In this document: positions 3,432 to 11,371 of the stretch, one piece after another
How positions within the stretch are numbered: position 1 is the stretch's first letter
Layout of the letters: every line of letters starts with the position of its first letter
Assembly: GCA_049516475.1 (NCBI GenBank)
Contig: JBEKTC010000004.1
Span: 1-48,005, forward strand
DNA: 48,005 nt
Source of the DNA: Candidatus Korobacteraceae bacterium
GTDB lineage: Bacteria; Acidobacteriota; Terriglobia; Terriglobales; Acidobacteriaceae
Direction of reading: 5' to 3'
Program-made: the position numbers and the translations under genes
The notes under the pieces: model-generated
The model's input: only the letters and a program-made list of their open reading frames with translations
Database searches by the model: none
Told to the model about the DNA's origin: nothing

Positions 3432-6410
3432 ATGAGTGCGGCGAGTAAACCGGCGGTCAATCGTGAGCTAACCGCGGACACGGCAACAGTCGCCTGGTCC
3501 GGGACGCGCTCGGAATTTGATTATGACATCTTCATTTCCTATCGTTCTCTGGACGGGAGCGCTGCCGCGACGTGGTTGAGCTCTAAGTTGCGCTCCTATC
3601 GTCCCCCGCGTGGTTACGAACGAGAGCTCGAACCACTCCAGATTTACAGAGACATTGAACGGGAGAGGGTCACACCGGCTTTATGGGAACAGCGCATCAA
3701 GCCGGCTCTCTCTCGGTCACGATTCTTGCTCGTGGTTTTCACTCCAAGCGTCCTCGACAAACTACCCGACGGACAACCCAATTGGGTTATCCGCGAAATG
3801 ACAGAGTTCCTTCAGTTGCCACAAGGTTCGAATATCATGCTTGCCCGCGCAAAGGGAACTCTCGATCTGGCAATACCGGCTGAGCTGGCAACCCGTTTTC
3901 CCGAACCTGGCTGGGTTGACATTCACCTCGCGAATCACTGGTGGACTCGACTGTTCAGTCGATCCGCTTTGCATGACAAACTGACCGCACTAGCTGTACC
4001 TGCTCTCGATATTCCGGACAAAGATATTCCCGCGTTAAATCGGTTAGCAGAAAGGCACAAGCGCAGGATTGCGTGGATTACCTCAGGCGTATCTGTCTTG
4101 TTGTTGCTCATCATAAGCACGCTGGCAATCATTGCGCTCTTTCAACGGTCAGCGGCTGTCAAAGCAGCCGCTGGTGAGCGAATGCAGAGGGAGATCGCAC
4201 AGCAGACGGCTGAGGCCGAGCGCAGAGCACGGGAAGAGGCGGACGCACAACGGAGCAGGGCTGACAAGAAGGCGCTAGAGGCGGATCAACAAAGAAAAAT
4301 CGCGGTCCAGAGGGAGATGGAGGCAAGACAGGAGGCCTTGATCGCAAATTCTCGTCGACTTGCCGTAGATGCTGAAGCCGTTCAATCAGACCAACTCGAT
4401 CTTGCTCTGCTGCTTGAAGTCCAAGCGTCAACAATGGCGCCGACGTTTGAAGCCCAACAAAGACTACTTACGACTCTACAGTACCGGCCCGCATTACGTA
4501 TGTTTTTGAGTGGCCACAAGGGTAGTGTGTCTGGTGTTTCCTTCGGCCCGGACGGTAAACTTCTCGCCTCAGCGAGTCAGGACGGGACAATCGGCCTTTG
4601 GGACGTCGAAAGCGGACGGAAGATCCGTAGCCTCATGGGACACCGAGGTGTCGTATCAAGTGTGACCTTCAGCCCGGATGGGAAGCTATTGGCCTCAGGT
4701 GGGTGGGATAAAAAACTCATCTTGTGGGATCCAAGCACAGGCAATGCGATTCGGACCTTCACCCAAGAGAAAGGGATCTATGCCCTTGCGTTCAGTCCCG
4801 ACGGTCAGTGGCTCGCCTCGGGCGGTGACAATCATACGATCATGATGTGGAATACCCAGACTGGAAAGCCGACTATGGGCATCGAGGCTTCGTCGTTGGG
4901 CGTTTCCGCTTTGGCTTTCAGTCCGGATGGTTCTATGCTGGCTTGGAACAGGGGAGGGAAAGTAGTAGTTTGGGATATCCGTCTTAAGAGCATTCGTCAT
5001 GTCCTGACAGCCGATGGAATTGGAGTGTCCAGCATAGCATTTAGCCCAGACAATAAGCAGCTGGCCTCGGCAGGGGTCGGCCAGAACATCATCCTCTGGG
5101 ATGTGGCAACCGGTACGCAAATTCGTTCTCTTATGGGGCATGAGTGGAATAAAGCTATAGCCTTCAGCCCCGATGGAGAGCACCTCGTTTCGGCTAGCGA
5201 AGATAATGCGTTACTCCTGTGGGACATAGATAAGGGTGTCGAACTTCAATCATTCGAAGGTCATAAGGGCAGCGTTAACTGCGTTTCTTTTAGCCCGGAT
5301 GGCACCCGTCTCGCCTCTGGAGGCGACGATCGCAAAGTCATTTTATGGGACACCAAACTACAGAATCGGTTGCGAGTGTTAGAGGGGCATGAAGGCGAAG
5401 TAAATGACGTAGTTTTTACCCCCGATGGAGGGCGTCTAGCCTCAGCTGGCAGCGATCGAACCATCAGACTTTGGGACCTGAGAACTCGCAAGGAGGTATT
5501 GAGGTTAAGCCAGCACGAAGAACAGGTGAACCGCCTGGCCTTTAGCCCCGATGGCAAGTATCTCGCCTCGGCAAGTGATGACCGAACCGTTATCTTATGG
5601 AATGCTGACACTGGTGCCGCTCTGCACACGCTGCGCGGACATCAGGATCTAGTGACGAGCGTCGCTTTTAGCCCAGACGGAACCAAGCTCGCGTCCGCTA
5701 GCGTCGAGAGCGAGAATAACATCAGGGTGTGGGACCCTCGAACGGGCAAACTGTTGCGCTTGCTAGATGGTCAGGATAGCATCGCTAGTATCACATTCAA
5801 TTCCACGGGTACTCTCCTTGCGTCGGGCAGCCAGGAGGGGAATCGAGTCCTGGTTTGGGACGTTTCCTCTGGCAAGGTCCTTAGGAGCCTCCTAGGAGAA
5901 GACGATGGCGGAACATTGACTGTGACCTTCAGCCCCGATGACAGATACCTGATTTCTGGAGGTGGCGACAAGATTATTGTGTGGGATCCGCGTACGGGCA
6001 AGAAGCTGCAGGTGCTGAAGAATCTTGAGCAGGATGTCTCTAGCGTTGCCTTCAGCCATGACGGCAACCGCTTGGCCTCGGCCAGTGGCAACGACAACAA
6101 GGTCGTCTTGTGGGACATTGCGTTGTGGGATCCCCAAACGAGCAAGCCTTTGCGGGTATTCAACGGACACCACGATTGGGTCAGCAGCGTCGCCTTTAGC
6201 CCTGATGACGAGCTGCTTGCCTCAGGAGGCTATGACGGAAATATCATTCTCTGGGATGATGCTAACCTTGCCGCAGCGCAGGAGCACGCCTGCCGTATCG
6301 CTAATCGGAACCTGAGTCCGAAGGAATGGGCTGAACACATTGGCCGCGAAGTGCCTTACAGTCGAACATGTCCACACATAACATCGGGAGAAGATGATTT
6401 GACCAAGTAA
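3432..6410 (+). CDS. TIR domain - transmembrane helix - coiled coil - 14x WD40 repeat protein
   Basis: GAGGGA lies 4 nt upstream of the ATG. TIR motifs are YDIFISYRS (aa 31-39) and SRFLLVVFTPSVL...NWVIREMTEF, with candidate catalytic Glu122 at nt 3795-3797. TM helix IAWITSGVSVLLLLIISTLAIIALF (nt 4068-4142). An A/E/R/Q-rich coiled coil follows. There are 14 units of the type GHxxxVxSVAFSPDGxxLASxxxDxTIxLWD (nt 4506-6257), enough for two 7-bladed propellers. The C-terminal tail is ACRIANRNLSPKEWAEHIG..PYSRTCP. Confidence 0.85.
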   Translation: MSAASKPAVNRELTADTATVAWSGTRSEFDYDIFISYRSLDGSAAATWLSSKLRSYRPPRGYERELEPLQIYRDIERERVTPALWEQRIKPALSRSRFLLVVFTPSVLDKLPDGQPNWVIREMTEFLQLPQGSNIMLARAKGTLDLAIPAELATRFPEPGWVDIHLANHWWTRLFSRSALHDKLTALAVPALDIPDKDIPALNRLAERHKRRIAWITSGVSVLLLLIISTLAIIALFQRSAAVKAAAGERMQREIAQQTAEAERRAREEADAQRSRADKKALEADQQRKIAVQREMEARQEALIANSRRLAVDAEAVQSDQLDLALLLEVQASTMAPTFEAQQRLLTTLQYRPALRMFLSGHKGSVSGVSFGPDGKLLASASQDGTIGLWDVESGRKIRSLMGHRGVVSSVTFSPDGKLLASGGWDKKLILWDPSTGNAIRTFTQEKGIYALAFSPDGQWLASGGDNHTIMMWNTQTGKPTMGIEASSLGVSALAFSPDGSMLAWNRGGKVVVWDIRLKSIRHVLTADGIGVSSIAFSPDNKQLASAGVGQNIILWDVATGTQIRSLMGHEWNKAIAFSPDGEHLVSASEDNALLLWDIDKGVELQSFEGHKGSVNCVSFSPDGTRLASGGDDRKVILWDTKLQNRLRVLEGHEGEVNDVVFTPDGGRLASAGSDRTIRLWDLRTRKEVLRLSQHEEQVNRLAFSPDGKYLASASDDRTVILWNADTGAALHTLRGHQDLVTSVAFSPDGTKLASASVESENNIRVWDPRTGKLLRLLDGQDSIASITFNSTGTLLASGSQEGNRVLVWDVSSGKVLRSLLGEDDGGTLTVTFSPDDRYLISGGGDKIIVWDPRTGKKLQVLKNLEQDVSSVAFSHDGNRLASASGNDNKVVLWDIALWDPQTSKPLRVFNGHHDWVSSVAFSPDDELLASGGYDGNIILWDDANLAAAQEHACRIANRNLSPKEWAEHIGREVPYSRTCPHITSGEDDLTK

Positions 6411-11371: not shown

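Follow-up and report, generated by a model that had tools for sequence, protein, structure and literature searches.

Four genes on one strand of a small tRNA-associated island raise the question of whether they work as one system. We examined this question for a 48,005-nucleotide stretch of DNA from a Candidatus Korobacteraceae bacterium (Acidobacteriota; assembly GCA_049516475.1, contig JBEKTC010000004.1, positions 1 to 48,005 of the forward strand), referred to here as the window. The genes, at positions 3432 to 11371, encode a TIR protein with a membrane anchor and WD40 repeats (g1), a protein in which no domain was recognised (g2), a patatin (g3), and a three-domain protein with a SLOG-like C-terminus (g4). 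An earlier note, made from the sequence by itself, proposed that the four genes form a single undescribed nucleotide-signalling defence module. The analysis reported here points to a smaller unit. We consider it reasonably probable that g3 and g4 make up a self-contained two-gene conflict module, probably anti-phage and related to type VIII Thoeris, which travels as a portable effector/sensor cassette.

Conservation and transfer of the g3-g4 pair

The g4 family is large and keeps its full-length architecture. Its relatives number more than 3694 database proteins and occur in at least 589 species, distributed over Acidobacteriota, Bacteroidota, Proteobacteria, Myxococcota, Cyanobacteria, Actinobacteria and other phyla. 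Neighbourhoods were counted in a sample of 80 genome loci encoding a g4 homologue. A patatin gene was adjacent to the g4 homologue in 55 of these loci and lay directly upstream, on the same strand, in 42. Patatin was also directly upstream of g4 in all five independent metagenome contexts, where the remaining neighbours differed every time. When a hidden Markov model (HMM) built from 52 partner patatins was run on the 25 patatin-less loci, no divergent patatin was found. That g3 and g4 are functionally paired, and that the system belongs among nucleotide-signalling conflict systems, is supported.

Compared with g3, the partner patatins form two groups, of ∼50% and ∼37% identity (L016, L025, L039, L070 and L071 versus the others), which do not track g4 identity. 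This pattern suggests that the patatin partner was replaced within the g4 family.

Close relatives of the pair reveal its boundaries. The g3-g4 cassette, including ∼150 nt upstream of g3 (8117-11372, plus strand), is 95.4% identical at the nucleotide level to two contigs (L006 and L007) over exactly that span. In these relatives, whose g4 is 94% identical, the flanks are unrelated, neither g1 nor g2 accompanies the cassette, and in one of the two (L006) the nearest 10 kb contain no tRNA. The nucleotide homology of g2 to its closest relatives (L009 and L010; 84.9% identity) is limited to a block of its own, at 6502-7990. Since the two blocks are separate, the island is a mosaic of three independently acquired cassettes, g1, g2 and g3-g4. 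The four-gene order is the same in contigs 98-99% identical to the window, so that the mosaic is stable within the population.

How, then, does the proposal of one four-gene system fare? It holds that the WD40 repeats sense infection, the g1 TIR domain signals, g2 is accessory, the SLOG-like part of g4 reads the signal, and the patatin kills. The note was right that four co-directional open reading frames (ORFs) are the only sizeable cargo of the tRNA island, and this arrangement, the conserved order in near-identical contigs, and the enrichment of TIR genes beside g4 homologues (see below) all speak for a single system. However, none of the 80 g4 loci contained a homologue of g2 or of the N-terminus of g1, the g2 and g3-g4 homology blocks lie in different contexts, a 94%-identical g3-g4 cassette does without both other genes, and g2 homologues are solitary in all their hosts, archaea included. 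We therefore consider a single four-gene system very improbable; judged from these comparisons, the four genes are not an evolutionary unit, whereas g3 and g4 are a conserved pair.

Viral sequences gave a different picture for one part of g4. Phage and prophage contigs from IMG/VR (L105-L184) contained stand-alone relatives of the N-terminal domain, aligned to g4 amino acids (aa) 2-178 at 27-40% identity (see also PHROGs 3634, 10872 and 26406), and none of these contigs contained a full-length g4. Because only N-domain relatives are present in the viral contigs, the g3-g4 pair is apparently not phage-borne. The phage-encoded homologues of the N-glycosidase domain could be nucleotide-modifying enzymes or counter-defence proteins.

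Domain architecture of g4

The g4 gene (9371-11371, plus strand) encodes 666 aa and, as the earlier note stated, starts 12 nt past the g3 stop. Its full-length AlphaFold model, with a mean predicted local distance difference test (pLDDT) score of 87, has an alpha/beta domain at either end and a long helical array between the two. From N- to C-terminus, these correspond to a predicted N-glycosidase fold of the NDT or cytidine monophosphate (CMP)-hydrolase type (aa 1-165; 9371-9865, plus strand), an all-helical TPR array (aa 166-460; 9866-10750, plus strand) that includes a TPR-S domain at aa 222-336 (PF20308, E = 5.5e-10), and a SLOG-like Rossmannoid domain (aa 470-666; 10779-11371, plus strand). 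Over 73 family sequences, 79 positions are conserved at ≥97%, and conservation is higher in both end domains than in the TPR region. The TPR middle is modelled with AlphaFold2 pLDDT >90 and its PDB fold matches are the TPR regions of OGT and SPY. These TPR proteins also dominate a PDB fold search with the full-length model, which gives no information on the end domains, and when g4 was compared with the PDB by sequence profile, designed and consensus TPR proteins were the only matches.

The N-terminal half of g4 leads to Thoeris. Searching plasmids by tblastn with g4 aa 1-460 returned 75 records annotated 'TRAFs-binding domain-containing' or DUF4071. On Pseudomonas plasmid pA7J1, a 134-aa ThsB_TIR gene comes after that of a 411-aa protein with TPR-S and MAP3K_TRAF_bd domains; on a Rhizobium plasmid, the homologue of the g4 N-domain and TPR region adjoins DUF4231 (SLATT) and TIR genes; and on an Acinetobacter plasmid, three TIR genes surround it. 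BLASTP aligned g4 with the pA7J1 protein at E = 5e-22, and the core motif of the two proteins is nearly identical (ADLVIADISIHNANVFYELGIRHAVR in g4 and ADLVVADISTYNPNAIYELGIRHAVR in the pA7J1 protein), following the pattern ADLV[IV]ADIS..N.N..YELGIRHAVR. Type VIII Thoeris consists of a ThsB TIR protein and ThsI, a 'CMP hydrolase and TPR' protein that becomes toxic upon external supply of canonical cyclic ADP-ribose (cADPR), a TIR product (Yirmiya et al., 2025, 10.64898/2025.12.03.692087). These plasmid neighbourhoods match type VIII Thoeris and the mixed ThsH/ThsI operons also described in that survey. On sequence comparison, then, g4 aa 1-340, comprising the N-domain and TPR-S, is homologous to ThsI and BcTpr of type VIII Thoeris.

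The same homology bears on the function of the N-domain. Residues N70, N72 and E76 (E76 at 9596-9598) are invariant in the 73 g4-family sequences, down to 37% identity, and their spacing, N70-x-N72-x-x-x-E76, is that of BcTpr residues N80, N82 and E86, mutation of which abolished nicotinamide adenine dinucleotide (NAD) hydrolase (NADase) activity, formation of a cADPR isomer, and defence (10.1101/2023.05.26.542521). Because the invariant NxNxxxE motif is catalytic in BcTpr, the g4 N-domain is itself probably an effector enzyme. The N-domain also matched PHROG 3634 (2.8e-17), and a BFVD fold search with the full-length g4 model, whose output does not specify the aligned part of the model, ranked a phage 'CMP/hydroxymethyl CMP hydrolase' first (2e-4). 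The NDT-like label given to this domain in the earlier note fits the fold, but overlooked the probable enzymatic role.

For the C-domain, searches with Pfam, including its known SLOG families, and with PDB sequence profiles gave no match, and its assignment comes from structure. A model of the C-domain by itself (pLDDT 91.5) had DprA (3uqz, E = 1.3e-3) and TRPM2 (8sri, E = 1.9e-3) as its top PDB folds, followed by ShosA (8zva, E = 2e-3, probability 1.0, query TM-score 0.47) and the LOG-like protein TM1055 (1rcu). The N-terminal, ADP-ribose-binding MHR1/2 region of the TRPM2 chanzyme 8sri belongs to the SLOG superfamily. BFVD matches of the full-length g4 model include YpsA-type SLOG and DprA-like proteins, and both glycine-rich loops of the domain, GGAxGGD (aa 524-530) and GDGPGGT (aa 636-642), are invariant. 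The C-domain family extends to 4328 cluster representatives at E ≤1e-3, and the matches listed in a search of a representative library were close family members only. SLOG-like, as first proposed in the note, is the best available fold class for this domain, with modest statistics.

The g3 patatin

We read g3 (plus strand) as 8267-9358, 363 aa from a TTG codon at 8267, which is the start in the gene call of 98%-identical contigs (L098-L100); the maximal ORF begins at a GTG codon at 8063 and spans 8063-9358 (431 aa). The protein matches Patatin (PF01734) at E = 7e-27. All three catalytic motifs that the note had pointed out are found in its translation, DGGGIRG, GTSTG (catalytic Ser at 8399-8401) and DGG, in agreement with the GGxR/K oxyanion, GxSxG and DGG/A motifs of patatin-like phospholipases, and we regard g3 as a predicted phospholipase. 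It scored 2e-46 against the PADLOC model of CBASS phospholipase effectors, and 129.3 bits against NCBIfam CBASS_lipase, under the 200-bit equivalog cut-off. By these scores, g3 is related to CapV-type effectors and closest to the CBASS models, yet it is no equivalog.

TIR neighbours and exchangeable partners

An iterated TIR HMM detected 32 TIR ORFs in 22 of the 80 loci, all confirmed as Pfam TIR_2. TIR ORFs made up 32 of the 671 ORFs within five genes of g4 and none of the 361 beyond that distance (Fisher p = 1.3e-6). These TIR genes encode varied large multidomain proteins, with NACHT/STAND, LRR-Roc-COR, transmembrane-anchored and WD40 architectures. Several loci are arranged like operons. 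In L083, the co-directional order, with gaps in nt in brackets, is TIR-NACHT-TPR [11] patatin [8] g4 [18] TIR-NACHT-TPR, and in L084 it is patatin [3] g4 [87] TIR [5] ParA-like nucleoside triphosphatase (NTPase). In L027, a patatin and g4 are followed by an overlapping TIR gene, and in L031, a TIR gene precedes an nSTAND1-TPR-S-patatin fusion (L031:3951-8300), a patatin, and g4. Among close relatives, a locus with a 94%-identical g4 has TIR and nSTAND1-WD40 genes within 10 kb, and one with a 90%-identical g4 has a TIR-YukD-TIR gene at up to the same distance.

From the 25 loci without a patatin, ten immediate co-directional neighbours were scanned. A TIR gene replaces the patatin directly upstream of g4 in three loci (L035, L036 and L074), in two of which (L035 and L036) the TIR gene is followed by nSTAND1 fused to g4. 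An alpha/beta-hydrolase lipase stands in the patatin's place in L044. The patatin is likewise replaced in L052, where an 1841-aa DUF7379-LCAT-CHAT-TPR-S protein (L052:12076-17601) is encoded directly downstream of the patatin-less g4 homologue, and L060 has an 1840-aa ORF at the equivalent position; the domain content given is that of the L052 protein only.

Fusion proteins (P0360, P0245, P0330, P0332, P0261 and P0312) extend this pattern. The g4 architecture is found fused to SLATT/DUF4231, to TIR_2, and to SIR2_2 and an ABC-type ATPase, while PNP_UDP_1 replaces the g4 N-domain in one protein and NB-ARC is located upstream of TPR-S and the C-domain in another. TPR-S plus the C-domain is the constant part of the family. 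Around it, the N-terminal nucleosidase and the lipase, SLATT and SIR2 partners behave like exchangeable effectors, and TIR and STAND proteins like exchangeable upstream sensors.

The g1 TIR protein

Whether g1 is such a sensor for the pair in this island is a separate question. The g1 gene (3432-6410, plus strand) encodes 992 aa arranged as TIR (∼3522-3941), a single transmembrane segment (∼4065-4160), a coiled coil, and 14 WD40 repeats (∼4494-6281). Pfam TIR_2 matched at E = 1.6e-5 with 25.9 bits, slightly under the 28-bit cut-off. An independent TIR HMM, made from 38 Pfam-confirmed TIR segments with g1 left out, gave 42 bits over g1 aa 30-135, and Glu122 (3795-3797), the candidate catalytic residue of the earlier note, aligned with a Glu that is invariant across all 39 aligned TIR segments. 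With a TIR fold and the conserved catalytic Glu, g1 is predicted to have NADase or signalling potential. No match of g1 to ThsB_TIR (PF08937) was found in Pfam.

The membrane anchor and 14 WD40 repeats that the note had described are also well supported, by one strong transmembrane segment at ∼aa 212-243 and by a WD40 match at E = 4e-135, with 14 WD motifs of which Pfam counts 13 WD40 stretches. The sequence RHKRR lies on the TIR side of the transmembrane segment, and the WD40 repeats are therefore predicted to be outside the cytoplasm. The coiled coil and the 14 repeats would then be extracytoplasmic, in a Toll-like-receptor-like topology.

Two family-level observations favor a link between g1 and the pair, namely the enrichment of TIR genes and the recurrence of TIR-transmembrane proteins, since the layout of g1 (TIR, single transmembrane segment, C-terminal domain) is common to 8 or 9 of the 32 TIR proteins near g4 homologues. 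A search with the first 345 aa of g1 found only 5 relatives, and where their surroundings could be read, in two cases, these contained no patatin, g4 or g2. The history of the cassettes, the position of g2 between g1 and the pair, and the 58 of 80 loci that have no TIR gene nearby also speak against a link. We consider it somewhat less likely than not that g1 supplies the signal to g3-g4 here; otherwise, g1 would be an independent TIR sensor or NADase.

Proposed mechanism and alternatives

In the mechanism that we propose for the pair, a messenger derived from ADP-ribose, most likely a molecule of the cADPR type, would bind the TPR-S and/or SLOG-like part of g4. Ligand-bound g4 would switch on its N-terminal nucleotide/NAD hydrolase, with Glu76 as the candidate catalytic residue, and the tightly coupled g3 patatin phospholipase would be activated via g4, with the outcome that the infected cell stops growing or dies. 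The source of the messenger would be a TIR protein, encoded beside the pair, with a variable sensor domain, in about a quarter of genomes. The sequence of TIR signal, SLOG-like receptor and patatin effector outlined in the earlier note is thus plausible at the level of the family, but the roles that it gave to g1 and g2 are unproven or wrong.

Several observations weigh against this mechanism or against parts of it. The PDB fold matches of the C-domain are weak to moderate (E 1e-3 to 2e-2, TM-scores 0.35-0.48), and its invariant polar residues H480, D483, R487, R491 and D530 could indicate catalysis rather than sensing. The enrichment of TIR genes could be a neighbourhood effect of defence islands with no shared pathway, and in this island g1 and g3 are separated by the unrelated g2, while g1 relatives are found without a link to the pair. 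In one contig with a 90%-identical g4 (L101), the patatin is internally deleted and g4 is intact: L101:400-592 corresponds to window 8207-8400, L101:591-2686 corresponds to window 9290-11383, and window 8401-9289 is gone. The system models of PADLOC and NCBIfam include none for g4, and no description or experimental test of the g3-g4 pair was found in the literature searched. Profile and structure searches have upheld the TIR, patatin and SLOG-like assignments. Neither PADLOC nor NCBIfam calls a system on the island.

Another contrary observation concerns the TIR protein itself. No TIR gene is present within 10 kb in 58 of the 80 loci, and the cassette also moves without one, as exactly two genes; a TIR signal is therefore either not obligatory or supplied in trans. 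These facts suit an autonomous, TIR-independent pair, in which the g4 TPR-S would sense a trigger, the N-glycosidase would make an NAD-derived product or deplete NAD or nucleotides, the C-domain would read the product or regulate the enzyme, and the patatin would be co-activated, leaving g1 as a separate TIR-WD40 defence gene. Published work on related proteins lends this explanation additional weight: the cADPR isomer is reported to be produced by BcTpr and not by BcTir, 'core Tpr alone' is the commonest arrangement, at 29 of 78 (10.1101/2023.05.26.542521), and stand-alone TIR and TIR-STAND (Avs) proteins are treated as NAD-depleting effectors (Yirmiya et al., 10.64898/2025.12.03.692087). However, the toxicity of ThsI is triggered by the supplied TIR product, canonical cADPR, and TIR enrichment, the operonic TIR-patatin-g4 loci, and one g4-TIR fusion argue that some members of the family, at least, are linked to TIR proteins. 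We see autonomy of the pair as a serious alternative, although on the present evidence a rather unlikely one.

Two bolder readings, which may hold separately or together, seem to us less likely still. In the first, g1-type proteins with TIR, transmembrane and sensor parts would be analogues of Toll-like receptors, whose product is read in trans by a portable plug-in cassette of ThsI-like/SLOG-like protein and patatin, able to respond to many different TIR sensors; the extracytoplasmic sensor of g1 would here possibly be two WD40 propellers, coupled across the membrane to the cytoplasmic TIR domain. The second is a TIR-less Thoeris, in which the N-glycosidase of g4 would write the signal and its SLOG-like domain would read it.

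A role outside defence has to be considered as well, since some contexts of the pair are plain housekeeping regions without mobile or defence genes, and g4 matches no defence HMM. The pair would then serve in regulated lipid or nucleotide metabolism, for example in remodelling membranes under stress, and its presence in an island would be due to chance. Against this, its genomic position is non-syntenic and cassette-like, TIR, STAND NTPases, SLATT, SIR2 and CHAT are either linked to the pair or fused to g4, a validated Thoeris effector is among the homologues of g4, and the patatin is closest to CapV-type effectors of CBASS. We give such a role very little credence.

Should g3-g4 prove to be a working defence module, it would extend type VIII Thoeris, which depends on cADPR, by an arm directed at lipids and by another domain that binds nucleotides. 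Screens centred on Escherichia coli and Bacillus under-sample the soil and aquatic phyla in which the pair is very common, such as Acidobacteriota, Bacteroidota, Myxococcota and Betaproteobacteria. Diverse TIR sensors beside a constant effector cassette, including membrane-anchored ones with predicted extracytoplasmic domains, amount to a testable mix-and-match wiring of immunity. Animal ASK/MAP3K5 kinases have an N-terminal 'TRAFs-binding' region that is homologous to the ThsI core, and the manner in which the TPR-S/SLOG-like part reads nucleotides could therefore inform eukaryotic signalling.

g2 and the borders of the island

The g2 gene (6516-7988, plus strand) encodes 490 aa with no match in Pfam, NCBIfam, PADLOC, PHROGs or PDB profiles, and no domain was found when 24 of its homologues were scanned with Pfam. 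It had been called an orphan, but ∼95 homologues exist, 41-82% identical, in bacteria, among them Methylomonas and Thauera, and in the archaeon Methanothrix. These are always lone genes in unrelated neighbourhoods (L009 and L011-L014); the Methylomonas homologue adjoins AbiEi/AbiEii. We regard g2 as a passenger that is unrelated to g3-g4.

The island lies between two att-like direct repeats, of which one represents a displaced tRNA-Met 3' half (3106-3162), and the other (11751-11807; direct repeat D5) is located at a tRNA-Met(CAT) gene (11760-11836, minus strand; ARAGORN, and 72 bits in Rfam). The repeats are 57 nt long and 96% identical, as expected for a tRNA-integrated island, and the pair is also found in a 99%-identical contig (L098). 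They delimit ∼8.6 kb, in which g1-g4, all in one direction, are the only sizeable ORFs; the interval 3163-11750 is filled by these genes and holds no integrase-sized ORF. The tRNA-Met 3' half, together with its flank, is present a third time in degenerate form (3057-3109; repeat family D7), 72% identical to 11726-11778 and abutting the 57-nt border repeat. This copy suggests that integration or excision had taken place at this site before.

The G+C content is 0.54-0.55 in g1-g3, 0.61 in g4, and 0.58-0.59 in the flanks of the island, and is uneven within the moving cassette itself (0.607 in g4 versus 0.550 in its partner g3). The tRNA was the sole match of an Rfam scan, and promoter and terminator scans of the island returned no more sites than in shuffled sequence. 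The left flank (1582-3009, minus strand) encodes an LssY_C-domain protein, and the right flank (12022-12879, minus strand) a protein with a receiver domain and HATPase_c_2 (RsbW-like). Neither of these flanking genes shows a connection to g1-g4.

Comparison with known systems

Which named system does the pair most resemble? The closest is type VIII Thoeris, with which g4 shares a ThsI-type N-domain, the NxNxxxE motif, and TPR-S; TIR genes are also enriched beside members of the g4 family. The differences are that g4 adds a SLOG-like domain of ∼200 aa and a longer TPR array, that its constant partner is a patatin rather than a TIR protein, and that a small ThsB-type TIR is absent, the TIR protein g1 being a 992-aa fusion of transmembrane and WD40 parts, encoded two genes upstream. 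Judged by its sequence, g4 thus has the effector architecture of type VIII Thoeris, whereas an operonic TIR of the ThsB type is lacking.

The SIR2-SLOG protein ThsA of type I Thoeris and the 'SLOG Patatin' proteins also combine a SLOG-class domain with a cell-killing enzyme, and the latter make patatin a candidate effector of a TIR signal; these candidates, in Table S2 of the Thoeris survey, gave no defence in E. coli (10.64898/2025.12.03.692087). In contrast, the SLOG-like domain and the patatin are here on separate polypeptides, and the SLOG-like part is fused to a ThsI-like module. The likeness to CBASS with CapV lies in the match of g3 to phospholipase effector models, with an intact Ser-Asp dyad and oxyanion motif. 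However, the conserved partner of g3 is g4 and not a cyclase, and no CD-NTase/SMODS cyclase was detected among the four island proteins with Pfam, PADLOC and NCBIfam.

The pair also has a place among the TPR-S-centred conflict systems predicted by Burroughs and Aravind (2020), whose assemblies, as summarised in the BcTir/Tpr preprint, include 'Patatin-Tpr', 'YpsA-Tpr', 'LSDAT' and caspase/CHAT effectors (10.1101/2023.05.26.542521). TPR-S, TIR, SLOG, patatin and CHAT form the vocabulary of that network in its summarised form, and the fusions and neighbours described here fit it; by sequence, TPR-S is joined to TIR, SLOG-like, patatin or other effector domains by fusion or by apparent operon. 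The claim that the arrangement matches no named system overlooked both the homology of the g4 N-domain and TPR-S to ThsI/BcTpr and the 'Patatin-Tpr assemblies' that this summary had already noted. Patatin-Tpr accounts for 4 of 78 arrangements in the counts of that preprint, whereas the g3-g4 pair is present in hundreds of species. As far as the summary extends, the components and logic of g3-g4 appear to have been computationally foreshadowed by Burroughs and Aravind (2020), the BcTir/Tpr preprint, and the 2025 Thoeris survey.

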